A stretch of 57,030 bases of DNA from Candidatus Omnitrophota bacterium. GTDB taxonomy: Bacteria; Omnitrophota; Gorgyraeia; Gygaellales; Profunditerraquicolaceae. Numbering within the stretch: the stretch's first letter is position 1; each line of letters opens with the position of its first letter. The notes under the pieces were generated by a model. It saw only the letters and a list, made by a program, of their open reading frames with translations, was not told the DNA's origin and made no database searches. Both the position numbers and the translations under genes were made by a program. This document shows, in pieces, positions 2,214-49,592 of this stretch. The stretch is taken from the NCBI GenBank assembly GCA_018897555.1, contig JAHIKK010000023.1, positions 1 to 57,030 on the forward strand, written 5' to 3'.

Positions 2214-2317
2214 GTGACCCTGACGGGATTTTCCCGCCAATACTTTAAGTCAGGGCGGGATCCCGCCTGCCTACTTATCCGCAGGACGGGAAAAAGCTCT
2301 TGTCCTGGACCAGGCTA
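2214..2317 (-). pseudogene. tRNA-Glu 3' remnant with 20 internal nt replaced by a double-hairpin element
   Basis: 2292-2317 is identical to 2360-2385 of the intact tRNA; 2215-2231 matches its 3' end with 2 differences (CAGGGTCA vs TGGGGTCA); 2232-2291 is the hairpin element. Confidence 0.85.
2232..2291. repeat. Double-hairpin element TCCCGCC-N15-GGCGGGA-TCCCGCC-N16-GGACGGGA
   Basis: Read directly; same architecture at 2441, 2556, 2897 and 47149. Confidence 0.9.
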
Positions 2318-2322
2318 ATTAT

Positions 2323-2397
2323 TGACCCCAACGGGATTTGAACCCGTGTCGAGAGCTTGAAAAGCTCTTGTCCTGGACCAGGCTAGACGATGGGGTC
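2323..2397 (-). tRNA. tRNA-Glu (TTC)
   Basis: GACCCCATCGTCTAGCCTGGTCCAGGACAAGAGCTTTTCAAGCTCTCGACACGGGTTCAAATCCCGTTGGGGTCA folds as a full cloverleaf; CCA not encoded. Confidence 0.95.
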
Positions 2398-2615
2398 GAT
2401 TTTATTTCTACTAATCTTTTAAAAACACTATGACCAGGCTTCCCGCCCGAACTTTAAACAAGGGCGGGATCCCGCCTCTCCTCTAATAATCTGGCGGGAA
2501 GACGATGGGGTCGATTTTATTTCTACTAATCTTTTAAAAACACTATGACCAGGCTTCCCGCCCGAACTTTAAACAAGGGCGGGATCCCGCCTCTCCTCTA
2601 ATAATCTGGCGGGAA
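2386..2615. repeat. Two identical 115-bp tandem units (tRNA-Glu 5' fragment with double-hairpin insert plus a copy of the nuclease gene 3' end); degenerate partial third copy at 2616-2662
   Basis: 2386-2500 equals 2501-2615 base for base. Confidence 0.93.
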
Positions 2616-2873
2616 GACGATGGGGTCGATCTTTATTTCTAACAATCTTTTAAAAACACTATTGCCTTTAAAACTTTTTAATTTATTTTCTCGTTTACGA
2701 GCTGTGGTCTTATCAGTAAACTGTTCTTGATAAACTACAATGTATGGGCCCTTGTTTTTTGTAGCGATAACGCGATTTTGGTTATGTTGTTTTAATCTTA
2801 TCGCAAGATTGCTAGTACTGCCAATGTAATGCTTGCCATTTTGGTTCTTTAAAACATACACATAATATAACAT
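2598..2873 (-). CDS. Small stand-alone GIY-YIG nuclease (UPF0213/YhbQ-like size)
   Basis: YYVYVL...HYIG motifs, R in LAIRLKQHN, E in ARKRENKLK; 91 aa. Confidence 0.9.
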   Translation of the reverse strand: MLYYVYVLKNQNGKHYIGSTSNLAIRLKQHNQNRVIATKNKGPYIVVYQEQFTDKTTARKRENKLKSFKGNSVFKRLLEIKIDPIVFPPDY

Positions 2874-2888
2874 AATCGCTATCTTACA

Positions 2889-2967
2889 ACCAGGCTTCCC
2901 GCCCTAGCTTTAATTCAAGGCGGGATCCCGCCCACACTAAAATACCCGGCGGGAAGACGACAGGGCC
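2889..2967 (-). pseudogene. tRNA-Glu 5' remnant (GGCCCTGTCGTCT / AGCCTGGT) interrupted by a 58-bp double-hairpin element at 2897-2954
   Basis: Removing 2897-2954 restores GGCCCTGTCGTCTAGCCTGGT; GGCCCTG pairs with CAGGGTC of the 2214-2317 remnant. Confidence 0.85.
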
Positions 2968-2974
2968 TAGAGTC

Positions 2975-5900
2975 TTATTCTTCCTCCTCCGCGATTACCG
3001 GAGCAACACAGGAAACTCGATCTTTATCCTGCAATTTAATTAAACGTACCCCTTGCGATGAACGCCCGGTTTCCCGGATATCTTTAATCGCACAGCGCAA
3101 AAATATGCCGTTTTGAGTAATGACCATCAGCTCATCTTTATCATTTACGGTTTTTAGATTTACTGCCTGGCCGTTTTTATCGGTAACCTTAATATTGATT
3201 ACCCCTTTACCGCCGCGGCTGGTGAGCCGGTATTCATCGATAGTCGTGCGCTTTGCAAAACCCAGCTCGGTTACGGTCAGAATAGTAGAAACTTTTTGCG
3301 GAACCACCATATCAATAACTTCATCTTTTTTGGCCAAAGATATTGCGCGCACCCCGCGCGCACCCCTGCCCATTTGGCGTACTTTTTCTTCAGTAAATCT
3401 TATCGCCTTACCTTGTCGGGTTCCAATAAGCAGCTCTTGTTTTCCATCAGTCATCTCTACGCCAATTAATGCATCATCCTTATCCAGAGTAATACCGATA
3501 ATTCCACCCTTGCGGGGATTACTGTAGGCATCCAGCCTGGTTTTTTTAATTTGCCCCATCTTAGTAACCATCACCAAATACTTATCCGCGGAAAATTCTT
3601 TTACCGGAATGGTTGAACTAACCTTGGCTGACTGCTCCATCTGCACCAGATTAACAATGGCTTTACCTTTAGATATGCGGCTGGCCTGAGGAATTTCATA
3701 AACTTTTAGCCAATGCACCTGCCCTTTATCCGTAAAAATAAGCAGGTAATCTTTAGTAGAGGCCACAAAAAGATGCTCGCTAAAATCTGCTTCTTTTAAT
3801 TCCGCCCCCATCGACCCGCTTCCTCCGCGCTTTTGTTTACGATAAGAACTTACCGGCAAACGTTTAATATAACCACCATGGCTGATAGTGACCACTACAT
3901 CCTCGTCGGCAATTAAATCTTCCACTTCCAGCTCTTCCGCTTCTCCCACGATATCCGTGCGGCGGGAATCCCCGTATTTTTTCATTAACTCCTGCAGCTC
4001 TTCCTTAATAATTGCTTCGATTTTTTTAAGTGAAGCTAAGATCGCCTGGCATAATTCAATCTTCTTGAGCAACTCCGCGTATTCGGCATCTAGTTTATCG
4101 CGCTCCAAAGCCGTAAGCCGCTGCAACTGCATTTCCAAAATAGCCTGCGACTGTAATTCGGAAAGTTCAAACTCCTTCATTAAATTTAGCTTGGCTGCTT
4201 CCACGCTTTTAGAAGTTTTAATGACCTGAATAATCCGGTCAATAAATTTAAGCGCAATTTTTAAGCCTTCCAAAATATGCGCGCGCTTCAAAGCTTTATC
4301 TAATTCAAACTGCGTGCGCCGGCGGATAACTACCCGGCGATGTTCGATAAAACAATCCAATACCTGCCGTAAATTCAAAACTTTTGGCCGGTTATCCACC
4401 AGAGCCAGCATAATAATCCCGAAAGTATTTTCTAATTGCGTGTGCTTAAAAAGCTGATTTAAAACAATCTGAGATTCAATGTCGCGCTTAAGCTCAACCA
4501 CAATACGCATACCTTCTTTATCGGATTCGTCGCGAATATCGGATATGCCTTCGATTTTTTTATCATCGACTAAACCGGCAATGGCCTCAATCAGCCCGGA
4601 CTTCTGCACCTGATAAGGAATCTCGGTAAAAATAATCAGGTCTTTCCCATTCTTCTGGTGCTCCACCGTAGCCTTAGCCCGCACCAAGAGCTTGCCCCGG
4701 CCGGTCAGATACGCATCCTTAATTCCGTTCTTACCGCAAATTAATCCACCGGTGGGAAAATCCGGCCCCTTGATATACCGCATCAGGTCTTTAATTTCTG
4801 CCTCGGGATGATCCAGCAAATACATAATTGCTTCACAAACTTCATTTAAATTATGCGGCGGGATATTGGTGGCCATGCCTACAGCAATACCGCTTGAACC
4901 ATTAACCAAAAGGTTAGGCAGAGTCGCCGGTAAAAGCAACGGCTCTTTTAAAGAAGAATCAAAGTTCGGCCCAAAGTTTACGGTTTCTTTTTCAATATCA
5001 CCTAACATTTCATCACTCACCGCGGCCAGACGAGCCTCGGTATAACGCATGGCTGCGGCGGCGTCACCATCGACGGAATTATGAACAAAAATTCCGCTAG
5101 CTAAAGCGAAATTATGCGTGCCATCAATACTCAAGTCATATACATCTTCTTGTTGGTTTAAAATTTCAACCTTTAGGACTTTATGGTTATAACTTAACTC
5201 TTTATACAGCAAGTCTTCCTGCTTATTATAATATTTTACAAATCCCGTATTCCAGGAAGTTGCTGATCCATAAGGATACGCCTCTTTTCGCGTGCTCTCA
5301 TATAATTCTTCATTTAAATGATGATAATTACTTAAAGTTTCATGGCAAATCTTAACAAACTTTATTTTACCGGTATTATTAGTAATCCTGTTTTTATTAG
5401 CTTTGATTATTTTTTCATTAAAAAGCCTTCTATACTGCGGATCCTGCCATAATCTTTTTAGGGTTCTTGTCGCTCTCTGGCTAAACTCTATTCTTTTTTC
5501 CGGATGATTTTTTATATACTCTTTATTAGTATCACTTAAAAACTGGCGCATTTTCTCCCGATAAAGAGGATCCTGCCAATTCCGGACATTTCTAGCTGAA
5601 AGCCTTGCTGAATATTTTGCTTTATTTTCGGCATTACTCCAAAATTTATCTCTACCTTCTGCTATTTTTTCCCTATATTCTTGGTTTTGGTGCAAAAGTG
5701 AGGCATTTTCATAATGTACCCGCCAATGTTCTCTCCACTCCATTCTTTTAATATTATCCGGATGATTATTAAGCTTATTAAAGTCGATATGGTGCCTTAC
5801 TCTTCCGTCAGATTTTGAATATTTTCCTCGGGTTAAATTATAATTATCGGCCAAATGATGAGCCGGAACCCATTCATTTTTTGCGTTTTGATAAATTAAA

Positions 5901-6580
5901 CAGTACCCATCCCTGTTTAACCTGCCGGTTTTTTCTGATAATTTTTCATACAATGGCATCAAAGATTCACCCGTAGTTAAATCTTTGGCCTCTTTGTAAG
6001 CACCATCTCTTAACATAAACCTGTGATTGGGAGTACATCTAATTTCCGCTCCATTATCCAAAATAACTTTTATAATCTCGGCGTTTCTTGTTGTTAATCT
6101 TGGATTTTTAATCTCCGCGATTGAAATCAGCCCAGAATGATTTATGGTATAAGTATAATTTACCCTTCCTTGCCCTGCCTCTTTTATTAAATCTCCAAAA
6201 TCAAGGTTTCTTCCATCTACAAGCTTAACTTTTGTATCCTTGGTGAAACAACCAAAATTCCCCTGCCCGTCAACTAAGGGGTAGCGCAAAGAAAAATCCT
6301 GCGCCATTCTTACCAGAGTATCATAAATAGCAACATCACCATGGGGGTGATATTTACCCATGGTTTCGCCGACGATGCGGGCGCATTTTTTATAGGGCTT
6401 GGAATGTTCCAGGTTAAGTTCCCGCATGGCGTAAAGAATCCGCCGGTGCACGGGCTTTAAGCCATCGCGAACATCCGGCAGGGCCCGGCCGACAATTACG
6501 CTCATGGCGTAATTTAGATAGGAATCCTTAACTTCATCCTCGATATAAACCTGAATTATTTTTTCGTTACGTGTATACAT
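2975..6580 (-). CDS. gyrA: DNA gyrase subunit A precursor containing an intein (mature about 810 aa)
   Basis: [29 protein letters not shown], GyrA box QKRGGSG, C-terminal propeller repeats. Confidence 0.98.
5078..6250 (-). mobile_element. GyrA intein, 391 aa, with HNH-type endonuclease region
   Basis: GNFG|CFTKDT start, block B CTPNHRF, end [13 protein letters not shown]|SVDG; [16 protein letters not shown] motif. Confidence 0.96.
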
Positions 6581-16043: not shown

Positions 16044-16835
16044 ATGGGTAAAATAATCGCAATATGCAATCAGAAAGGGGGAGTAGGTAAAACTACTACC
16101 TCAATTAATCTTGCAGCTTACCTGGCTATGGCAGGTAAAAAGGTTATGCTCATTGATTTAGATCCTCAGGCTAACGCTACCAGCGGTATTGGAGTAAATA
16201 AACACGACATCCAAAAAAGTACTTATCATATTCTGCTGGAAGAAGCAAAGCTTATTGATATTTTACAGAAAACCGAGATTGTTAATCTTATGCTTGCTCC
16301 TTCTAATTTGGATTTAACCGGAGCTGAGGTGGAGTTAGTCGGAGCATTAGGCCGGGAGTATAGATTAAAGAGGGCCTTACAACCTGAAAAAGATAATTAT
16401 GATTTTATAATTATCGATTCCCCGCCATCATTGGGATTACTCACGATTAATGGTTTATGTGCTGCTGATTCGGTAATTATACCTGTTCAATGTGAATATT
16501 ATGCTTTAGAGGGATTAACGCAACTCCATAATACGATTAGACTTGTGAAGGAAAACCTCAATCCATCTTTAGCCATCGAGGGTATACTGTTAACTATGGC
16601 AGATTTTCGTACCAATTTGACTAAAGAGGTGATCCAGGAGGCGCGGAACCATTTTCATGACAAGGTTTATATTACAGTAATTCCGAGAAATATCCGTTTA
16701 ACTGAAGCTCCGAGTTTTGGTAAACCCATAGCTTCATATGATCGAGATTCTCTTGGAGCGCAGAAATATGAAGAGCTTAGCCGGGAAATATTAGGCTTGC
16801 CTCTGAATCCAAAAATTGCAAAAGGAGCGAATTAA
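16044..16835 (+). CDS. parA: ParA/Soj ATPase
   Basis: NQKGGVGKTT, DLDPQANAT, DSPPSLG; start moved to ATG 16044. Confidence 0.96.
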   Translation: MGKIIAICNQKGGVGKTTTSINLAAYLAMAGKKVMLIDLDPQANATSGIGVNKHDIQKSTYHILLEEAKLIDILQKTEIVNLMLAPSNLDLTGAEVELVGALGREYRLKRALQPEKDNYDFIIIDSPPSLGLLTINGLCAADSVIIPVQCEYYALEGLTQLHNTIRLVKENLNPSLAIEGILLTMADFRTNLTKEVIQEARNHFHDKVYITVIPRNIRLTEAPSFGKPIASYDRDSLGAQKYEELSREILGLPLNPKIAKGAN

Positions 16836-17701
16836 TGGAAAGAAAAGCTTTAGGTAAAGGTCTCGGCGCATTAATTCCCGAAATAGCAGTAGATAGTACA
16901 AACCGTAGAAAAGAGGAGATTATTTATGTCCAATCTGGACAAATAAAACCCAATCCTTTTCAGCCGCGTGAAGATTTTGATGAGCAAAGTATCGGAGAGC
17001 TAGCACAATCTATTAAAGAAAAAGGGGTTATTCAACCACTTTTGGTTAGGCGTCAAGGTGATAACTATGAATTAATTGCCGGGGAAAGAAGGCTTCGCGC
17101 AGCTAACATTCTGGGGCTCAAAGAGATACCAGTTATTGTGCGAGATGTAAGCGATCAGGATTCATTAGAACTAGCCTTAATTGAAAATGTCCAAAGAGAA
17201 GGATTAAATCCTATTGAAGAAGCGCATGCTTATCAACACCTGGTGGATAAGTTCCAGGTTACCCAGGAAAAGATAAGTGAGGTTTTAGGAAAATCCCGCG
17301 TTTCGATTACCAATACTTTGCGCCTGCTTAAGCTGCCGCATGAGATTCAAGGTGAAATGAAAAAAGGGCGCATTAGTTTTGCCCATGGCCGGGCTTTACT
17401 TGAAATCGAAGACGCCAATCATCAGCGCAGGCTTGCCCAAGACGTTATTTCCAAAGGGCTTTCGGTGCGCGAGTTAGAAAACTTGATTAAAAGTGTGCGG
17501 CCCAAATCGATAAAACGCAATATCAGCCAGGGGCAGCGTGAGCCGCTAGTGGCAATCTTAGAGGAGCAATTGCAGCATGCCTTAGCCACTAAGGTGCGGA
17601 TCAGCAAGAGAAAAAAACGCGGGCACATTAATATTGAATTTTATTCGCCCGAAGATCTGCAGCGCATAGTTAACGTTATTAAAGGGACACCCCGCGCTTA
17701 G
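16835..17701 (+). CDS. parB: ParB/Spo0J
   Basis: ALGKGLGAL, NPFQPR, GERRLRA, ENVQRE. Confidence 0.96.
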   Translation: MERKALGKGLGALIPEIAVDSTNRRKEEIIYVQSGQIKPNPFQPREDFDEQSIGELAQSIKEKGVIQPLLVRRQGDNYELIAGERRLRAANILGLKEIPVIVRDVSDQDSLELALIENVQREGLNPIEEAHAYQHLVDKFQVTQEKISEVLGKSRVSITNTLRLLKLPHEIQGEMKKGRISFAHGRALLEIEDANHQRRLAQDVISKGLSVRELENLIKSVRPKSIKRNISQGQREPLVAILEEQLQHALATKVRISKRKKRGHINIEFYSPEDLQRIVNVIKGTPRA

Positions 17702-17778
17702 CAGAATTGTGCGGGTGTTATCTAAGTAAGCAAGGGACACCCCGCGCTAATTGGTATTGCGCGGGTGTTATCTAAGTA
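17682..17778. repeat. Two tandem 47-bp hairpin units (period 50) with different loops
   Basis: AAGGGACACCCCGCGCT-N11-GCGGGTGTTATCTAAGTA at 17682 and 17732. Confidence 0.85.
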
Positions 17779-17798
17779 GATAAGGAGAAAAATAAAAA

Positions 17799-18308
17799 AT
17801 GGGACAGGCAGTTTTAATTTTAATTAAACCCGATGGGTTAAAAAAATCGCTAACCGGCAACATCCTTACGCGCTTATCTGAGACCAAACTTGAAATTGTA
17901 GCGGCTAAAATGGTGCGTGTATCCAAGGCCTTAGCCGAAGAACATTATAAACATTTAAAAGATAAGCCCTTCTTTGGTGAAATTATTAAATATTTGCAGG
18001 GGGATTTACATGACCGTAAGAAAGTGATGGCTTTGGTTTATTGGGGAAAGGATGCTATAACTAAATGCCGGGACTTAGCCGGAGCCACCAACCCCGAGGA
18101 GGCGGAATCGACCTCAATCCGGGGTTCTTATGGCCGGATTACCATCAGTGGCGTTTATGAAAATGTAGTCCATGTTTCATCTAATGCTTCGGAAGCGGAG
18201 CGAGAGATTAAGCTCTGGTTTGCGCCCGATGAAATTATCGTTGATCTTTACGCGACAAAAAATATAGTGCAAAAAGAATTTTCGAGTAAGGTTTGGGCCG
18301 ATATATGA
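17799..18308 (+). CDS. ndk: Nucleoside diphosphate kinase
   Basis: IKPDG, GATNP, SIRG, NVVHVS. Confidence 0.92.
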   Translation: MGQAVLILIKPDGLKKSLTGNILTRLSETKLEIVAAKMVRVSKALAEEHYKHLKDKPFFGEIIKYLQGDLHDRKKVMALVYWGKDAITKCRDLAGATNPEEAESTSIRGSYGRITISGVYENVVHVSSNASEAEREIKLWFAPDEIIVDLYATKNIVQKEFSSKVWADI

Positions 18309-34104: not shown

Positions 34105-34266
34105 ATATCCCTGCGGTGCGCGTTGGAAATTTGATAATTGTTGAACCAACACCATATTCACGGGAGCCCCATTATTCTTTATTGCACTTGTGCTTAAAGA
34201 TAGGGCACCCACCTGAAACCAAATCGGTTCAGACTATCAATCCAACGGCACTTTTGCGGGGATTTT
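34105..34266 (+). ncRNA. ssrS: 6S RNA
   Basis: Rod-like pairing ATCCCTGC/GCGGGGAT, GGTGC/GCACT, GTTGGA/TCCAAC, TTGATA/TATCAA; GGGAGCCC, GGGCACCCACCTG...GGTTCA and CAACGGCAC motifs as recalled from B. subtilis 6S-1; TTGATT-17-TATACT promoter at 34048-34076. Confidence 0.85.
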
Positions 34267-34342: not shown

Positions 34343-35188
34343 ATGATTTTCATTTTGCAAATATTAGTAGCCTTGGGCGCGGGTGTAGTTATCTATGCTG
34401 TTTTTGAGTTATTTGCATCCGGTAAGCCTGAAGCCCCGGGAAAGCAAAAAATCCAGATCCAGCCGCCTCCTGCTGCAGATCCCGGTAAAGAGCAAAAAAT
34501 CCAGCGTTTACAAAGCCAGGTCGCCAAGTTAGAAAGCCAGTTAGAGGCGGCCAGGGTTGGCTCTGTAGAGAAAAAATCCGAATCCACGGCAGTTAAAGAA
34601 AAAGAGGCGGAATTTTCGGTAGAGTTAAAGCGCAGAGAAGAATGGGTGGCTAAAGCGGAGGCAGAGTTAGCTAAGGAAAAAGCAGAAAATTTAGATTTAA
34701 ATAATAAGTTTATTACCAAAGAAAATGAGCTGCAGGGGGAGTTTGCTAAAAATGTAAATTTGACCCGCCAGATGCAGGACATAAAAGCCGCCCTGGAAGC
34801 AAAAGAGATGGCTTGCCGGCTTAAAGAAGATCAGTTGCAGGCGCAGAAACATCAAATCGCCAGCCAGCTTAAAAGCACGAATGAACATCTAGCGACGATT
34901 GCCGAGTTTAACCGTAAAGAAAAGATTAGCGAGTGGGTGCCTAAATTAGAGTTTAATAAATTAAATGAAGAGTACACAAAATTAGAGAAAGATTTAGAAG
35001 CCAGCCAGGAGAGATTAAAAAGTTTTGCCGTTGAGATTGCGCATTTGCGTCAGGGGATCGATAAAAAAGCTCCGCTGGCAGAAGAAATTAAGTTGCTAGG
35101 AGGCATCCCGGAAGAAATTAAACCAGAAGAAGCTAAGCCGGAAGAAATAAAGTCAGAAGAAAGTAAAACTGTAGAAGAGAAAAAATAA
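34343..35188 (+). CDS. Membrane-anchored coiled-coil protein with C-terminal PEE(I/A)K repeats
   Basis: N-terminal TM, Pro-rich linker, long E/K/Q/L heptad region. Confidence 0.7.
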   Translation: MIFILQILVALGAGVVIYAVFELFASGKPEAPGKQKIQIQPPPAADPGKEQKIQRLQSQVAKLESQLEAARVGSVEKKSESTAVKEKEAEFSVELKRREEWVAKAEAELAKEKAENLDLNNKFITKENELQGEFAKNVNLTRQMQDIKAALEAKEMACRLKEDQLQAQKHQIASQLKSTNEHLATIAEFNRKEKISEWVPKLEFNKLNEEYTKLEKDLEASQERLKSFAVEIAHLRQGIDKKAPLAEEIKLLGGIPEEIKPEEAKPEEIKSEESKTVEEKK

Positions 35189-41933: not shown

Positions 41934-43737
41934 AAGACTGCCGATTATCTTAGGTGGGGTTTTATTATACTTAATCTCCTTTTTGTCCTTTTCTCCGGCA
42001 GCTTCTTTTGCTCAAATTCCAGAGGAGTTAGAGTTTAGTTTAGACCTGAATTCTCCCGTAGTCAGCCTTCCGCATATATATAGATCCAGCGTGGATTTAA
42101 GCGGCCGGGGCAAGCAGCGGGATTTAACCTACCCGCAAACACTAGCTTCTACCGATGCCTTGGCTGCCTGGCAGGCGGATTTAGGTTTCCGTAATTTCTA
42201 CCGTATTCAATACAATCTTTGGGAGATCCAGCGGCTAGTTAACGACCAAGCCTCCTACCAGAAACTCCTGAGCAACTATGAAGAGATAATCAAAAAAATA
42301 AGTGACAGCGGAGGGACGGTAATTTTAGATTTATTCGGCACTCCTGATGGTTTAGGCGCGGTGCTGGATAAAAATAGTGCCCCTCACAATTTAAAAATAT
42401 ATAAAGAATTAGTTAAGAATACGATTCGTAAATTTAGTTGCGAGAAAAAATATAATATTTGGTATGAAGTTTGGAATGCCCCGGATCTCGGTGATTTCTT
42501 TTTGGGGGGGCGAGCAGAGTATTTTAATCTTTACCGTGTCATCGGTGAAGCGGTAAACGAACTGCGCCGGGAAACCAAAATACATATACCTTTGGGCGGG
42601 CCTTCGGTAAGCGCCTGGTTTAGGAATATTGAGCCCAATAATATACTTTTACCTGAACGCAGCTTAATCTATGAGTTGATAAAATATTGTTATAGCTATC
42701 GGCTGCCGCTGGATTTTATCTCCTGGCACGCCTATTCCAGCGATCCGGCAGAAGAAAAGCAGGATACAATTTATAATAAACCTTTTGTTGAGCTTATCCG
42801 CGAGTGGTTGACTTATTTTAAATTCAACAGCAATATTCCCTTGTTGGTTGATGAATGGAGTTTTGACGGCTCCGCAAATATTTTAGCCGAAAGAGCTAAA
42901 TTTGCGTATATCTCTGCCAGCTATATCCCGGGGCGTCTTAAAAATATGTATGAAGCCGGAATAGATTATCAGACATATTTCTGTCTTGAGGATTTCGGAG
43001 ATAATCAGGTTGGGGCAATCAGAAACTTAGGTATTTTTTCATTTGACCCGGCCCGGCCGGAAAATAAAGGATATGCTAAAGCTAATTATAATGTCTGGCG
43101 TATGTTTGGCCTGTTGGGCCAGGATTTATTTACTGCCAAATTTAGCGATGAATTTGTAGGAGTAATTTCTACCAAGTCGCGAGATTATTTTGCCGTACTT
43201 ATTTACAACTATATTGATCCGCAAGCGGCCATGAATTATATCTCTCATAATATAGTTTATTTAAATCCTGCGGAACAAAAAGCAATTATAAGCATTGTTA
43301 AATCTGATCGCATGAAGAAGATTATCGCCGGCCAGCTAAACCTGGCTACTTTGCGGCTAAGCGTTAAAACTAAAGGGATACTTAGCCGCGCTATAGAATT
43401 AAATATTTTAGCCAATAAATTTTCGACAACGAATCGGAAGATCAAAGTTTCTTTAAAAGGCATTAAAGATACCTACGCCTTGAGTAAATATGTGATGGAT
43501 AGTAACTGTAGCCGAAATTGCGAATTTAAACCCAGTGTTGAAAAAGACGTTGATTTTAACCAGGATTATGTTGAGGCCATGGAATTAAGCCCTTATTCAG
43601 TTCAGTTATTAATTTTTAAGAAGAAGCCGGCGGAAGTAAAGCCCGTGGAAGTTAAGCCTGAAGAGAAGCCGGCGGAAGTAAAACCCGTGGAAGTTAAGCC
43701 TGCGATTAAAGAGATAAACAATGCAGAAAATAAATAA
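41926..43737 (+). CDS. Exported GH39/clan GH-A-like protein
   Basis: Signal peptide, YEVWNAPD, LGGP, LDFISWHAYS, LLVDEW. Confidence 0.75.
   Translation: MIKRLPIILGGVLLYLISFLSFSPAASFAQIPEELEFSLDLNSPVVSLPHIYRSSVDLSGRGKQRDLTYPQTLASTDALAAWQADLGFRNFYRIQYNLWEIQRLVNDQASYQKLLSNYEEIIKKISDSGGTVILDLFGTPDGLGAVLDKNSAPHNLKIYKELVKNTIRKFSCEKKYNIWYEVWNAPDLGDFFLGGRAEYFNLYRVIGEAVNELRRETKIHIPLGGPSVSAWFRNIEPNNILLPERSLIYELIKYCYSYRLPLDFISWHAYSSDPAEEKQDTIYNKPFVELIREWLTYFKFNSNIPLLVDEWSFDGSANILAERAKFAYISASYIPGRLKNMYEAGIDYQTYFCLEDFGDNQVGAIRNLGIFSFDPARPENKGYAKANYNVWRMFGLLGQDLFTAKFSDEFVGVISTKSRDYFAVLIYNYIDPQAAMNYISHNIVYLNPAEQKAIISIVKSDRMKKIIAGQLNLATLRLSVKTKGILSRAIELNILANKFSTTNRKIKVSLKGIKDTYALSKYVMDSNCSRNCEFKPSVEKDVDFNQDYVEAMELSPYSVQLLIFKKKPAEVKPVEVKPEEKPAEVKPVEVKPAIKEINNAENK
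43623..43702 (+). repeat. 42-bp period coding repeat (KPAEVKPVEVKPEE x about 2)
   Basis: Near-identical units at 43623 and 43665. Confidence 0.85.
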
Positions 43738-45164: not shown

Positions 45165-47030
45165 ATGTTTTTAGAAAAAATAAATTCACCTCTGGATTTA
45201 AAAAAATTAAGTTTAGAGCAGCTTAGTTGCCTTAGCGCGGAGATTCGCCAGAGGCTAATCGAGGTTGTTTCTCAGACCGGCGGGCATTTGGCTTCCAGCC
45301 TGGGGGCTGTCGAGTTAATCGTGGCTTTACATTATTGCCTGGATACACCCAAAGATAAAATTATTTTTGATGTGGGGCATCAGGCTTACGCGCATAAAAT
45401 ATTAACCGGACGCAACCGCAATTTTTCTACACTTAGGCAGTATCAGGGATTAAGCGGTTTTCCTTCAAAAGATGAGTCTGTTTATGATCCCTTTACTTCC
45501 GGCCACAGCTCGAGCGCTGTTTCTTTAGGTTTAGGGCTTGCCTGCGCCAGGGATTTTTTACCTAAAGCGGAGCAATTTAAGGTAGCTTGTGTGATTGGGG
45601 ATGGATCTTTAAGCGGCGGCCTTTGTTTTGAAGGCCTAAACAATACCGGACATTTGAAAAAAGACATTTTAGTGGTTTTAAACACCAATGAATTAAGTAT
45701 CGCTCCGAATGTGGGGGCGATTAGTAATTATTTGAATAAAATTATTTCTTTACCGGTGTATAACCGTTTTCATGATAATGTGGAGAATTTTTTAAAAACC
45801 CGTGTCCCGCGCGGCAGCCGCCTGATAAAACTTATGAATAAGTTTGAAGAAGGATTAAAGGGGCTATTTGTCCCGGGTATGTTGTTCGAAGAACTGGGAT
45901 TCCGCTATTTTGGCCCTATCGATGGGCACGATTTAAGCGCCTTAACTTCTACGCTAAAAAATATTCTGGAGATTAAAGGCCCCCGCCTTTTGCATATCGT
46001 GACCAAAAAAGGCAAGGGTTGCTTGTTTGCTGAAAAAGATCCGGTAAAGTTCCATGGGATCAGCCACTTCGATATCCATACGGGTGAAGTGGTGATTAAG
46101 AAATCTTCACCGGGAGCAAAAAGCTATACGGATATATTTCGTGATAAAATAGCGCAGTTGGCCCAAAGCGATAAGCGGATTGTGGCGATTACTGCCGCCA
46201 TGCCGGAGGGAACAGGTTTGGATAAATTCCGGGATTGTTTCCCGGAAAGATTTTTTGATTGCGGTATTGCCGAAGGCCACGCGGTTTGTTTTGCTGCCGG
46301 GCTGGCCAAACAGGGGTTTAAGCCGGTAGTAGCGATATATTCTACATTCCTGCAGCGCGCCTATGATCAGATTATTCAGGATGTTGCATTACAAGGGTTG
46401 CCGGTAATCTTTGCTATTGACCGGGCGGGAATTGTGGGGGAAGATGGAGTTACCCATCAAGGTATATTTGATATTGCTTATTTAAGGAGCATCCCGAATT
46501 TGGTCATCATGGCTCCCGGGGATGGCCGGGAACTGGAGCAGATGTTAGTGTTTGCTTTGCAGTTAGATAAGCCGGTAGCTATAAGATACCCTCGCGCAGA
46601 GGTTTCTTTGGAGGTGGATCTTGCGCCCCCTTTGAAATTAGGGCAGGGGCAACTAATTACAGAGGGCAAGGATTTCATAGTCATTGCTTTAGGCAGCATG
46701 GTTGGCGAGGCCAAGAAAGCCCTGGAGATATTAAATCAGGAAGGGTTATCCGGTAGTTTAATTAATGCCCGGTTTGTTGCGCCGCTGGATATGGAATTAA
46801 TTAAAAGAGTTTGCGGGGCGAGGAAATTTATTTTTACCATTGAAGAAGGGATAAGGGATGCGGGTTTTGGCAGTGCTGTTGCCGGGCAGTTAAATAAGCC
46901 GGTGGAACGTCTCGGCCTGCCATTTGAATTTATCCCGCATGGCGCCAGAGGGTTGCTTTTGGAAAAATATAAGCTCACCTCTAGCGGGATTGCCGCGCAT
47001 ATTCGCCAGGTGATAAAAAATAATGGCTAA
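45165..47030 (+). CDS. dxs: 1-deoxy-D-xylulose-5-phosphate synthase
   Basis: GGHLASSLG, DVGHQ, GHSSS, IGDGS, GIAEGHA, AYDQ, DRAG. Confidence 0.97.
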   Translation: MFLEKINSPLDLKKLSLEQLSCLSAEIRQRLIEVVSQTGGHLASSLGAVELIVALHYCLDTPKDKIIFDVGHQAYAHKILTGRNRNFSTLRQYQGLSGFPSKDESVYDPFTSGHSSSAVSLGLGLACARDFLPKAEQFKVACVIGDGSLSGGLCFEGLNNTGHLKKDILVVLNTNELSIAPNVGAISNYLNKIISLPVYNRFHDNVENFLKTRVPRGSRLIKLMNKFEEGLKGLFVPGMLFEELGFRYFGPIDGHDLSALTSTLKNILEIKGPRLLHIVTKKGKGCLFAEKDPVKFHGISHFDIHTGEVVIKKSSPGAKSYTDIFRDKIAQLAQSDKRIVAITAAMPEGTGLDKFRDCFPERFFDCGIAEGHAVCFAAGLAKQGFKPVVAIYSTFLQRAYDQIIQDVALQGLPVIFAIDRAGIVGEDGVTHQGIFDIAYLRSIPNLVIMAPGDGRELEQMLVFALQLDKPVAIRYPRAEVSLEVDLAPPLKLGQGQLITEGKDFIVIALGSMVGEAKKALEILNQEGLSGSLINARFVAPLDMELIKRVCGARKFIFTIEEGIRDAGFGSAVAGQLNKPVERLGLPFEFIPHGARGLLLEKYKLTSSGIAAHIRQVIKNNG

Positions 47031-47271
47031 AATTATAATTAATCAGGATAGATGTAAGGGGTGTTTTTTATGCGTAAATTTTTGTCCCAAGGGTTTGATT
47101 AAGAAAAGCGTAAAATTAAATAAACAGGGTTTGAATTTTGCGGAGTTTTCCCGCCGAGGTAACTTAAATAAGGGCGGGATCCCGCCAAAAGCGGGAGATT
47201 TAACAGATTGTATCGGCTGTATGCAGTGTGTGGTAATTTGTCCGGATTGCTGTATTGAGGTAGATAAATAA
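47023..47271 (+). CDS. 2x[4Fe-4S] ferredoxin (delta subunit of 2-oxoacid oxidoreductase) with a 16-aa repeat-derived insert
   Basis: CKGCFLCVNFCP and CIGCMQCVVICP. Confidence 0.92.
   Translation: MAKIIINQDRCKGCFLCVNFCPKGLIKKSVKLNKQGLNFAEFSRRGNLNKGGIPPKAGDLTDCIGCMQCVVICPDCCIEVDK
47149..47196. repeat. In-frame 48-bp TCCCGCC/GGCGGGA double-hairpin element
   Basis: TCCCGCC-N17-GGCGGGATCCCGCC-AAAA-GCGGGA encodes SRRGNLNKGGIPPKAG. Confidence 0.85.
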
Positions 47272-47272
47272 A

Positions 47273-48334
47273 ATGAAGATATTATTAAGTGGTAATGAAG
47301 CAATTGCCCAGGGAGCAATTCAGGCAGGTTGTAGTTTTTATGCCGGCTATCCTATTACTCCGCAAAATGAAATTATTGCTTATATGGCAAAACACATGCC
47401 TAAGAAAGGTGTTTTTATCCAGGCAGAGAGCGAGTTGGCGGCGATTAATATGGTTTATGGGGCCTCTGCTGCCGGAGTAAGGGCGATGACTTCATCCTCA
47501 AGCCCGGGAATAAGCTTAAAGCAGGAAGGAATATCTTATATTGCCGGCGCGCAGCTTCCGGCGGTAATTGTCAATATTATGCGCGGCGGTCCGGGTTTGG
47601 GAAACATTGCTCCTGCGCAATCGGATTATTTTCAAGCTACGCGCGGCGGAGGGCATGGAGACTATCACTTGATCGTCTTGGCTCCGGCTTGCGTGCAAGA
47701 AGCATATGATCTAACGCAAACCGGTTTTGATTTAGCGGATAAATATCGTATCCCGGTTATGATTTTGGGTGATGGTATATTGGGCCAAATGATGGAACCA
47801 GTAGAAATCAGAAGACAGAAGACGGAAAACAGAAAACAGAAGCAGCCAATAAAACCGTGGGCGCTTACCGGTTGCAAAGGAAGAAAGCCCAATATCGTTA
47901 AATCATTTTTTCTGCGGGAAGGGGCTTTAGAGGAATTCAATCTTAAATTGCAGAAAAATTATGAAATTATCAGACAAAAAGAGGCGCGCTTCGAAGGCCT
48001 ATTCTTGTCTGATGCTAAAGTTATCCTGGTAGCTTATGGGACAATGGCGCGGATTGCTAAAAGCGCAATATTTGAGCTCAGAAAAGAAGGATATAAGATT
48101 GGATTAATCCGGCCGATCTCTCTGTGGCCTTTTCCTGTAAATGCGTTTCGTCATCCGTCAATCGTCAATCGTCATCCGTCATTTCTGGTAATAGAGATGT
48201 CTTACGGCCAGATGCTTGAGGATGTCCGGCTGGCAGTCGGCGGCAGGCAGCAAGTAGAGTTTTTTGGCCGTTCAGGAGGCGGGGTACCTACTGAAGGCCA
48301 GATTATGAACAAAGTTAAAAAAATATTATCATGA
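47273..48334 (+). CDS. 2-oxoacid:ferredoxin oxidoreductase alpha subunit (Vor-type)
   Basis: GNEAIA, YPITPQ, QAESE, SSSPG, RGGPGLG. Confidence 0.92.
   Translation: MKILLSGNEAIAQGAIQAGCSFYAGYPITPQNEIIAYMAKHMPKKGVFIQAESELAAINMVYGASAAGVRAMTSSSSPGISLKQEGISYIAGAQLPAVIVNIMRGGPGLGNIAPAQSDYFQATRGGGHGDYHLIVLAPACVQEAYDLTQTGFDLADKYRIPVMILGDGILGQMMEPVEIRRQKTENRKQKQPIKPWALTGCKGRKPNIVKSFFLREGALEEFNLKLQKNYEIIRQKEARFEGLFLSDAKVILVAYGTMARIAKSAIFELRKEGYKIGLIRPISLWPFPVNAFRHPSIVNRHPSFLVIEMSYGQMLEDVRLAVGGRQQVEFFGRSGGGVPTEGQIMNKVKKILS
47809..47843 (+). repeat. Five coding heptamers C(A/G)GAA(G/A)(A/C)
   Basis: CAGAAGA CAGAAGA CGGAAAA CAGAAAA CAGAAGC. Confidence 0.8.
48149..48183 (+). repeat. Five coding heptamers CGTCA(T/A)(C/T)
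   Basis: CGTCATC CGTCAAT CGTCAAT CGTCATC CGTCATT, encoding RHPSIVNRHPS. Confidence 0.85.
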
Positions 48335-49059
48335 AAAAAACATTTAAACACTGCCAATCTTTATATGATCTGCCTACGCATTATTGTCCGGGTTGCGGAC
48401 ATGGCATTGCGCACCGGTTGGTGGCGGAGGTAGTCCAGGAGTTAGGGATTAGAGAGAAAACTATCGGTATTGCCCCGGTAGGTTGCGCGGTGGTAGCTTA
48501 TGATTATTGGAATTTTGATTGTTCAGAGGCAGCGCATGGCCGGGCGCTAGCGGTAGCTACTGCCATAAAAAGAGTACATCCGCGGAATATTGTTTTTACT
48601 TATCAAGGAGACGGGGATTTAGCGGCGATTGGCACTAATGAGACTATTCATGCGGCAAATCGCGGAGAAAATCTCTCCGTAGTTTTTATCAATAACGCGG
48701 TATATGGCATGACCGGAGGACAGCTAGCTCCCACTACGCTTTTAGGCCAGAAAACCTCTACCTCGATTGAGGGGAGAGAAAAAAAAGCTCACGGTTATCC
48801 TTTAAAAATATCTGAGATGCTGGCATTATTGCCGGGCGTCTGCTATATCGAGCGGGTTTCTTTACACAGCCCCCCGGAAGTGTTAAAAGCTAAACGCGCA
48901 ATTAAGCAGGCATTTGAAAATCAAATCCACAATTTAGGGTTTTCTTTAGTGGAAATACTTTCTCCCTGCCCGACTTATTGGGGGTTGGCCCCTAAGGAAT
49001 CATTGGATTGGATCAGGGATGTTATGCAGAAAGAATTTCCCTTGGGAAGGATTAAATGA
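48331..49059 (+). CDS. 2-oxoacid:ferredoxin oxidoreductase beta subunit (TPP-binding)
   Basis: YCPGCGH, GDGD...NN, YGMTGGQ, SPCP. Confidence 0.92.
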   Translation: MKKTFKHCQSLYDLPTHYCPGCGHGIAHRLVAEVVQELGIREKTIGIAPVGCAVVAYDYWNFDCSEAAHGRALAVATAIKRVHPRNIVFTYQGDGDLAAIGTNETIHAANRGENLSVVFINNAVYGMTGGQLAPTTLLGQKTSTSIEGREKKAHGYPLKISEMLALLPGVCYIERVSLHSPPEVLKAKRAIKQAFENQIHNLGFSLVEILSPCPTYWGLAPKESLDWIRDVMQKEFPLGRIK

Positions 49060-49592
49060 TCGAGCGGATAATCATCGCCGGTAGCGGCGGCCAGGGAGTA
49101 ATGCTTTTGGGTAAGGTTTTAGCGCAAACCGCCATGCTTGAAGGTAGGCAGGTTAGTTGGTTTCCGGCTTATGGCCCGGAGGTACGCGGAGGGACCAGCT
49201 ATTGCATGGTGACTATCTCCGATTCCGAGATCGGATCACCTTATATCACCGGAGCGGATACACTTATAATTTTAAATCGCCATTCTTTAGAAAAATTTAT
49301 AGGTAAGCTCAAAGGAGGAGGGCTGTTGATTCTTAATTCTTCTTTAGCCAAAATTAATGCGCAGGCCAAGATAAAGGTATTGGTATTTCCGTTCACGGAT
49401 ATGGCCATAAAATTAGGTAACATTAAAGTCGCCAATATGGTAGCATTGGGTTGTTTTGCCGCGGCTAAGAAAATTATAAAGGTTAAAAATATTTTAAAAG
49501 TGTTTAAATCTATCGCTCCCGCCGGTAATTTAAAAATTTTAGAGGTTAATCAGCAAGCTTTAGCAGAAGGGCAGAAGTTAAATTATGGTTAG
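49056..49592 (+). CDS. 2-oxoacid:ferredoxin oxidoreductase gamma subunit
   Basis: AGSGGQG, YGPEVRGG, NMVALG. Confidence 0.92.
   Translation: MIERIIIAGSGGQGVMLLGKVLAQTAMLEGRQVSWFPAYGPEVRGGTSYCMVTISDSEIGSPYITGADTLIILNRHSLEKFIGKLKGGGLLILNSSLAKINAQAKIKVLVFPFTDMAIKLGNIKVANMVALGCFAAAKKIIKVKNILKVFKSIAPAGNLKILEVNQQALAEGQKLNYG

Follow-up and report, generated by a model that had tools for sequence, protein, structure and literature searches.

A short double-hairpin repeat, probably mobile, lies in frame within a ferredoxin gene of an Omnitrophota bacterium

The 57,030-nucleotide contig JAHIKK010000023.1 of a Candidatus Omnitrophota bacterium (GenBank assembly GCA_018897555.1), which we analysed at full length and call the window, carries at 47023..47271 (+) the gene korD, within which lies a 48-nt hairpin-forming insert that we attribute to a small repeat element, here named E. 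KorD is an 82-aa 2x[4Fe-4S] ferredoxin with two CxxCxxCxxxCP motifs and all eight cluster cysteines retained. Because the downstream genes encode the alpha (korA/vorB-like, VorB/KorA-type, 47273-48334 (+), E value 3e-160), beta (korB, PorB_KorB, 48331-49059 (+)) and gamma (korG, POR gamma, 49056-49592 (+)) subunits, the host gene is the delta-subunit ferredoxin of a 2-oxoacid:ferredoxin oxidoreductase. korD is the first gene of korDABG and gltX comes after korG; the overlap of starts with stops suggests an intact operon that is still used. The Pfam Fer4 and 4Fe-4S dicluster families match KorD residues 3-76, and homologues carry the name 2-oxoglutarate ferredoxin oxidoreductase subunit delta. 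Matches to OorD, PorD_KorD and OGOR_delta are partial: the NCBIfam alignment takes in the first cluster motif only, and because the insert splits the match, KorD reaches neither the OorD cut-off (37.2 bits against 93) nor that of PorD_KorD (34.8 against 60). Its family assignment is based on gene context and named homologues.

The insert occupies 47149-47196 (+) and reads TCCCGCCGAGGTAACTTAAATAAGGGCGGGATCCCGCCAAAAGCGGGA. It begins 126 nt (42 codons) past the ATG and forms codons 43-58, encoding the peptide SRRGNLNKGGIPPKAG between the cluster motifs CKGCFLCVNFCP and CIGCMQCVVICP; its deletion gives ...NFAEF/DLTDC... with the frame kept. The layout is TCCCGCC GAGGTAACTTAAATAAG GGCGGGA / TCCCGCC AAAA GCGGGA, with a first loop of N17, and CTTAAA is present in the insert loop. 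Hairpin 1 (47149-47179) has a 7-bp stem and a 17-nt loop, hairpin 2 (47180-47196) a 6-bp stem and a 5-nt loop, and the 48 nt folded as single-stranded DNA give these two adjacent hairpins with a dG of -14.1 kcal/mol (z = -4.0). Five occurrences of the core GGCGGGATCCCGCC lie in the window (at 2254, 2463, 2578, 2919 and 47173), where 0.11 would be expected, a count that none of 100 shuffles reaches, and TCCCGCC-N10-24-GGCGGGA occurs eight times against 0.00 expected. The first four core positions fall in a tRNA locus near the other end of the window, and over a 23-nt stretch the korD copy matches the copies there at 96% identity.

E is a family of such structures: two adjacent GC-rich hairpins, each TCCCGCC-loop-GGCGGGA with 7-bp stems, with full copies of 54-66 nt and a short form of 45-48 nt whose second loop has 3-5 nt. 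The korD copy is of this short, 'one-and-a-half hairpin' form, as judged from sequence, folding and the empty site in two relatives described below, and the form recurs at L009, L075, L083 and L104. Scanning one genome per species with the pattern TCCCGCC-N13-19-GGCGGGATCCCGCC, we found at least 116 loci, at least 73 of which have the full architecture TCCCGCC-loop-GGCGGGA/TCCCGCC-loop-GGCGGGA. Among the 80 matches listed, 47 are labelled Omnitrophota; the matches listed include the complete genome of Candidatus Velamenicoccus archaeovorus, and others are labelled Patescibacteria/Uhrbacteria, Planctomycetes or plain 'bacterium'. A T-rich triplet stands before both ends of E (T at -2 in 85% of ends), so the usual context is TTN/E/NAA. 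We consider it quite likely that these 48 bp represent one copy of a mobile element that is small and non-coding and belongs to a dispersed repeat family of Omnitrophota, present also in some genomes labelled Patescibacteria.

That the insert could instead be a chance GC-rich palindrome, an ordinary lineage-specific linker or an assembly chimera we regard as having a negligible probability. About 20 high-GC actinobacterial matches listed for the 21-base pattern do look random and are without a second hairpin, but the window counts of five and eight exceed chance expectation as given above, and the 23-nt stretch is shared with the tRNA-locus copies. The insert-bearing sequence is also common to independent JGI, NCBI and Logan assemblies and to contigs from four groundwater metagenome runs; this agreement among independent assemblies and runs means that it is no assembly artefact. 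A groundwater run, X9, holds a contig piece on 47161-47196 from a second Omnitrophota species, whose korD (of 'KPVKF...NETSEC' type) also has E here and is roughly 10-fold deeper than the window-like strain.

Several more familiar identities for E were rejected: an intrinsic terminator (there is no T-run, and copies lie inside open reading frames, ORFs), an intron of group I/II or archaeal type (E is not large enough, no such motif is present, and an intact tRNA always stands beside the interrupted one) and a passenger of IS200/IS605 (a Y1 gene is not among the recurrent neighbours). Rfam has no family matching E, and no ribozyme or bulge-helix-bulge motif was found. Full-text literature on Omnitrophota palindromes or insertions, Omnitrophota GIY-YIG proteins and Velamenicoccus repeats, a coverage that excludes subscription-only papers, yielded no description of E; nor did term searches of a 2026 Omnitrophota complete-genome survey (bioRxiv 10.64898/2026.06.07.730766, which reports 176 genomes) return a mention. 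A separate 54-nt subfamily (TCCCGCCGACGTnGGACTTTGGCGGGATCCCGCCAAAAGCCnCTG..GGCGGGA) is found at L080, L021, L027, L032, L034, L058, L078 and L087, in metagenome-assembled genomes (MAGs) labelled Uhrbacteria/Patescibacteria, which suggests either spread across phyla or mis-binning.

Close relatives of the window preserve the site in both states. The gene order xseA-xseB-dxs-korD-korA-korB-korG-gltX is common to the window and to L117, L120 and L121, which over an 8.3-kb alignment are 93.6% (L117, filled), 94.8% (L120, empty) and ~85% (L121, empty) identical to it. The empty site in L120 and L121 reads GAGTTT/GATTTA (also written GTGGAGTTT/GAT), and the window and L117 have GAGTTT, the 48 bp and then GATTTA. 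The aligner set the gap a few codons rightward, but the insertion point as read from the sequence strings is unambiguous: the junctions, exactly TCCCGCC...GCGGGA, are not shiftable by one base, and no target base is duplicated. More widely, the linker between the cluster motifs measures 24-26 aa in 84 of the 119 homologues in which it can be parsed, and all 35 longer linkers begin with Ser (TCC) directly after the same Phe. A metagenome scan with a KorD profile contributed 80 further loci; among 86 korD loci, 58 have a 25-aa linker, and in the remainder DNA derived from E follows TTT at exactly this point. Comparison with near-identical and more distant orthologues thereby shows that the korD copy is an insertion.

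Sequence, ORF and counts bear out the preliminary description of this DNA, which had reported an in-frame 48-bp (16-codon) element with the tRNA-locus core and a CTTAAA loop between the cluster motifs. It had also noted that removal would leave AEF-DLTDC with an unbroken frame, and the ~95% identical, syntenic L120 has the exact empty site. Its question of whether orthologues without the palindrome have an equally long linker is answered in the negative by the linker lengths, with 24-26 aa in 84/119.

Occupation of this one site seems to have occurred repeatedly. Filled korD alleles are scattered in several places on a KorA tree, and three variants of E share the korD site in different lineages: variant 1, with loops of AACTTAAATAAG type, in the window clade and a 'KPVKF' clade; variant 2, with loops of CAGAAGATAGAG type, in L168, L179, L175 and L183; and variant 3, with lengthened second stems TCCCCCGCC/GGCGGGGGA, in L160 and L167. 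A comparison of the window clade with the 'KPVKF' clade gives 70-85% identity over the 20 loop nucleotides of the insert but only 38-51% at third codon positions of the flanks, and the flanks diverge up to the junction (GCGGAGTTT/.../GATTTA versus GTAAAATTT/.../AATGAA). Since the insert is more alike than its flanks, E would have come alone and later than the split of the host lineages; inside a clade the insert has diverged in step with its flanks, the pattern that vertical descent following an insertion should leave. We rejected transfer of the whole korD allele by recombination, because the between-clade flanks differ right up to the junction. The pattern points to recurrent insertion at the korD site, with selection apparently filtering to a permissive loop, and we infer that E is mobile from its presence or absence among relatives and from the occupation of one site by different subfamilies.

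A history of one ancient korD insertion, inherited vertically and followed by many independent precise losses, so that the patchiness would reflect excision, appears unlikely to us even though parts of the data suit it. In the upper KorA clade most alleles are filled and two (L195 and L196) are empty, the empty L120 groups with the filled window and L117 alleles, and the korD inserts of clades A and B are closer to each other than to the window's other E copies; seamless excision is also the norm for hairpin-ended elements of IS200/IS605 type. However, all 84 empty alleles have a scar-free linker, so dozens of exact excisions would be required, at least three distinct E subfamilies occupy the site, and between clades the flanking synonymous sites have diverged far more than the insert loops, where an ancient, neutral insert should show the reverse. 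The outgroup L121 is itself empty, and the window, L117 and L120 form a near-trichotomy that is compatible with a single recent gain in this group.

E also lies in frame within other proteins, in agreement with the earlier suggestion that it has spread beyond tRNA genes and generates protein insertions. Eleven further copies inside long ORFs, so that E is found in frame in at least 11 unrelated proteins, are all stop-free and of 3n length (48, 57, 60 or 63 nt), as assessed by a frame-independent test, and lengths outside genes run through all values from 54 to 66. The hosts, each with a Pfam domain running across the insert, are the starch/glycogen synthase GlgA (L081, Glyco_transf_5), Macro-NUDIX proteins (L101, L070 and L052, Macro), an ABC-F ATPase (L104, ABC_tran), an H+-pyrophosphatase (L009, H_PPase), a class II glycyl-tRNA synthetase (GlyRS, L001), peptide deformylases (L042 and L013), an SMC protein (L049, SMC_N), the P-type ATPase MgtA (L051) and TatD (L038, TatD_DNase). 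Most of these copies read SR......GGIPP....AG, with L051 and L038 in the other two frames, a bias explained in part by the loop motif TTAA(A), which makes a stop in one frame. When a profile of the E peptide (FSR..GGIPP..AGK), padded with flanks, was run against a collection of 5.8 billion proteins, 11 of its 12 matches were KorD; a word-index prefilter limits the yield, which is therefore no census.

The same lengths weigh on the notion of E as an intron-like or translationally bypassed sequence, taken out or passed over once transcribed, which would leave a mature protein without the 16 residues and make the frame irrelevant. Ribosomes in yeast mitochondria do bypass hairpin-rich inserts, and E occupies loop positions of tRNAs, including the anticodon loop (L012, L036 and L067). 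Removal before translation would nevertheless not need intragenic copies that are all 3n and stop-free when every length from 54 to 66 is found elsewhere; each E-interrupted tRNA is a fragment with an intact tRNA gene beside it, group I and group II introns are far larger than E, and the searches for an Rfam family, ribozyme or bulge-helix-bulge motif were negative. We judge this explanation highly improbable.

In the AlphaFold model of KorD, which is of moderate confidence overall (mean predicted local distance difference test score, pLDDT, of 65), pLDDT falls below 50 solely at residues 47-61, after strands at 26-32 and 38-42, which indicates that the insert probably forms a disordered surface loop directly after the beta-hairpin 26-42, which lies between the two cluster motifs and separates them. 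Several alleles show decay: stem-breaking substitutions in L141, L143 and L171, internal deletions that leave SPKAG, SRQSGIPPKAG or a single hairpin (P0013, L188 and L192), and a remnant FSPPKGGGK. Decay takes a further form in the three-hairpin composites at korD in L173 (4001-4342), L181 and L186, arranged as TCCCGCC..GGCGGGA, TTCCGCC..GCGGAA and TCCCGCC..GGCGGGA AAA GGCGGGA; these look like a second element nested in the first, and L173 has a further extension of ~20 aa.

Retention of the insert for a benefit to the host, whether as a KorD surface loop for partner or ferredoxin docking or as an mRNA hairpin that slows translation between the halves binding the two clusters or sets the processing of the operon mRNA, is in our estimation very improbable. 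It would accord with recurrence at one site, persistence across diverged lineages, stable hairpins and insert DNA that is more conserved than neighbouring synonymous sites. Yet a korD-specific role is not needed for an element found in at least 11 unrelated proteins, in tRNA fragments and in intergenic spots; most orthologues, including that of the 95%-identical relative, are without the insert; stem-breaking mutations or partial deletions have arisen in L141, L143, L171, L125, L192 and P0013; and the peptide is predicted to be disordered.

The other E copies of the window lie at 2200-2960, between gyrA and glmS, in a mosaic of an intact tRNA-Glu, one 3' tRNA fragment, three 5' fragments that E splits between GTCT and AGCCTGG (D-loop) and an ORF for a GIY-YIG nuclease. 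The intact tRNA-Glu(UUC) at 2323..2397 (-) is the source gene of the E-carrying fragments. One copy (2232..2291, 60 nt, second stem imperfect) sits in the T-loop position of the 3' fragment. A 59-nt copy (2441..2499) lies between GTCT and AGCCTGG, in the D-loop of a duplicated 5' fragment, and an identical one (2556..2614) in the next 115-bp unit abuts the 3' end of the GIY-YIG ORF; a 58-nt copy (2897..2954) occupies the D-loop of a diverged 5' fragment directly upstream of the GIY-YIG start codon. The ORF itself (2598..2873 (-); PF01541, E value 1.7e-15) encodes a minimal nuclease of ~85-91 aa that is catalytic domain only, profile scans having detected no second domain beyond PF01541, and its last codons extend into the repeat. 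The tandem 115-bp units at 2385-2614 consist of E, tRNA positions 14-22, the last 32 nt of the ORF and tRNA positions 1-13, and are ORF-less versions of the cassette; as they are 100% identical, recent duplication explains them as well as re-insertion does. A CRISPR-like array was considered here and rejected, because the 'spacers' are identical and the structure is a 115-bp tandem duplication.

Other Omnitrophota have the same cassette layout between gyrA and glmS, and it is also found at tRNA-Asp and tRNA-Thr genes: a 5' tRNA part, E at a D- or anticodon-loop or stem position, a few tRNA bases, the GIY-YIG ORF and a complete tRNA. Every E-interrupted tRNA copy is a fragment beside an intact tRNA gene. 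In E-selected loci, all 11 GIY-YIG homologues lie 0-75 nt from E, and the 86 korD loci contain none. Unbiased clustering of ORFs within 400 bp of E put the GIY-YIG family first, with nine loci, and returned no transposase-like family, no TnpA and no other recurrent family, although the Pfam scan of these neighbours was not exhaustive. Five GIY-YIG homologues were also picked through a protein database, independently of E: GC hairpins interrupt the upstream pseudo-tRNA in four of the five and are absent in one. In L203 and L207 it is E that sits in the D-loop of an upstream pseudo-tRNA-Glu, and two distant homologues (41-44% identity, at tRNA-Lys) have other GC hairpins (CCCCGATTTAATCGGGG) at a similar position. 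The latter are the tRNA-Lys pseudo-tRNA fragments of L205 (1430-1500) and L206 (1400-1500), split by unrelated 17-nt GC hairpins (CCCCGATTTAATCGGGG and CTCCGACTTAGTCGGAG), so the design of a hairpin in a decoy tRNA predates the E sequence. A MAG labelled 'bacterium DeMMO3_36' (L080, 3600-5000) contains two GIY-YIG ORFs along with a hairpin-split tRNA-Thr, tRNA-Tyr and another tRNA-Thr. In one metatranscriptome, 5% of korD words were found; the Velamenicoccus GIY-YIG locus was found in none of those screened.

The association of E with the GIY-YIG gene is thus real at the family level, with strong statistical support. The preliminary description had set the korD copy 44 kb from this gene; the distance is correct (~44.3 kb from the ORF at 2598-2873 (-)) and the link holds at the family level, but the spacing itself is meaningless. 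The nuclease is the sole candidate mobiliser that the data single out. It might mobilise E; another possibility is that the hairpin protects the cassette or marks it out and that solo E copies are by-products.

Our preferred account, which we think quite likely as a whole, is that a copy of E inserted in korD and was kept in frame by selection. E would copy itself as DNA into short AT-rich, TTN/NAA-like sites with weak sequence specificity, such as those offered by tRNA loops and by Phe/Lys-Asp codon junctions. Most insertions into genes would be lethal, and the survivors would be those of 3n length, stop-free and in the sole tolerant surface loop of a 67-aa ferredoxin, a selection filter that would account for the frame being kept and for one site being hit repeatedly. 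The insert would then be translated into a disordered 16-residue loop without selected function and would later decay by point changes and internal deletions. More tentatively, the stand-alone GIY-YIG nuclease of E-bounded, tRNA-targeting cassettes might be what moves E; it may be a structure-specific nuclease acting on the E hairpin or cruciform, in which case solo E copies would be non-autonomous passengers. Doubtful, and more so than this role for the nuclease, is the larger proposal that E and the GIY-YIG gene form an unrecognised class of prokaryotic mobile element. In such a class a lone GIY-YIG domain would mobilise a 45-66-nt double hairpin into TTN/NAA sites, with tRNA loops favoured and no target duplication. 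An autonomous cassette would rebuild the tRNA that it splits, and non-autonomous hairpins would spread in Omnitrophota and Patescibacteria, remodel protein loops and hit the same codon junction independently.

Several observations weigh against this account. The KorA tree behind the scatter of filled alleles is a quick neighbour-joining tree without support values, and the insert could be conserved through constraint instead of having arrived recently. Covariation in the stems is not significant (there is one double change, equalled in 201/500 shuffles), and we therefore do not claim selection for pairing. The right flank at korD (GAT) fits TTN/NAA on one side only. In the four metagenome runs neither reads nor contigs gave a joint lacking the 48 bp, and the signs that the insert may be translated are its frame and stop-codon statistics. 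As for the mobiliser, a lone GIY-YIG catalytic domain is not a known transposase, and solo E copies share no flanking homology for homing-type repair.

Among known systems, the closest in behaviour are the Rickettsia palindromic elements (RPEs; Ogata et al. 2000, reviewed), selfish palindromes found in frame inside housekeeping proteins (PMC10969869), and the likeness drawn to them in the preliminary description is apt. Both RPEs and E are short palindromic non-coding repeats that lie in frame within unrelated housekeeping genes as a fold-compatible extra peptide, occur in RNA genes and spacers as well and have no identified transposase. RPEs, however, are ~100-150 bp, restricted to Rickettsia and encode a conserved peptide in each family. 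Set against RPE descriptions, E is distinguished by its 45-66 bp, two 7-bp GC stems and presence in Omnitrophota and in MAGs labelled as candidate phyla radiation (CPR), and also by the absence of target duplication, the re-entry of the same site across lineages and its tie to a GIY-YIG cassette. E shows the RPE phenomenon but, in size, sequence and host, belongs outside the RPE family.

[quoted passage not shown] E has the features of a MITE in its ends (TCCCGCC / GGCGGGA), small non-coding body and at least 116 dispersed loci. MITEs differ in deriving from insertion sequences (ISs), with the terminal inverted repeats of the parent IS and target-site duplications, whereas comparison of filled and empty sites gives no duplication for E and no parental IS or transposase was found adjoining it. 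The one gene that recurs beside it is the GIY-YIG ORF, which has E at one boundary or at both, and GIY-YIG is no established transposase. E is best classed among RPE/MITE-like in-frame palindromic elements.

Repetitive extragenic palindromes (REPs, with the bacterial interspersed mosaic elements, BIMEs) and the REPIN-RAYT systems (REP doublets forming hairpins and REP-associated tyrosine transposases) resemble E in their GC-rich hairpin doublets, lack of target duplication and single-copy, repeat-flanked gene as presumed mobiliser. They differ in being extragenic by definition with an HUH/Y1 partner (RAYT), whereas E is also intragenic (at least 12 in-frame copies including korD) and its partner is a minimal GIY-YIG. 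Palindromes derived from IS200/IS605 insert 3' of a fixed 4-5-nt target without duplication and have subterminal hairpins; E makes no duplication and has a T-rich 5' flank (TTN), but its hairpins lie at the very ends and its recurrent neighbours include no TnpA.

Outside bacteria, the double-hairpin elements (DHEs) of Allomyces and the yeast var1 GC cluster are similar elements of mitochondria. Mitochondrial GC clusters and repetitive hairpin-forming elements are tiny GC hairpins in AT-rich genomes (PMC2800124, PMC4478555). These and E are alike as single or double GC hairpins in AT-rich genomes, scattered through spacers and RNA genes and at times inside protein genes, and in both cases mobility is read from presence or absence; the mitochondrial elements differ in being organellar, unrelated in sequence and without such an associated nuclease gene. 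On the nuclease side, phage T4 SegB is a free-standing GIY-YIG homing endonuclease at tRNA genes (PMC13096335, PMC2988022), and both settings have a GIY-YIG ORF among tRNA genes and tRNA-locus segments that are duplicated or amplified. Seg proteins, however, have ~200 or more aa with DNA-binding domains and home between co-infecting phages, whereas the nuclease here is chromosomal, has just a catalytic domain (80-90 aa) and is accompanied by a decoy tRNA fragment that a hairpin interrupts.

Colonisation of proteins in frame by selfish palindromes has been treated as peculiar to Rickettsia and a few MITEs, and it would now extend to an uncultivated free-living or predatory phylum, with a much smaller element and a different insertion chemistry (no target duplication). 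E offers a natural experiment on loops that tolerate 16-21 extra residues, in which a 67-aa ferredoxin has been struck repeatedly at one site. It also explains odd length variants and sub-threshold hidden Markov model (HMM) scores in Omnitrophota annotation, KorD being an example, and it brings forward the minimal GIY-YIG nuclease, with its associated decoy tRNAs split by hairpins, as a candidate mobilising enzyme of a new kind.

Other features of the window are of separate interest. GyrA, encoded at 2975-6580 (-), has 1201 aa against 810 aa in the relative L203, and the ~390 additional aa (CFTKDTKV...VHNS) resemble an intein that contains an insert of endonuclease type; the GyrA of L099 reaches 1806 aa, suggesting several inteins. 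The spacer between the ORFs 16835-17701 and 17799-18308 holds two tandem 50-nt units (17682-17781), each with a different GC hairpin (ACACCCCGCGC-loop-GCGCGGGTGT), which may be a second, unrelated hairpin repeat. A match to 6S/SsrS RNA at 34105-34266 (+) scores 67 bits, above the Rfam gathering score. Finally, short coding repeats with a 15-nt period (AAGCCGGAAGAA-type, Lys/Pro/Glu-rich) occur at two distant places, 35103-35171 and 43622-43702.

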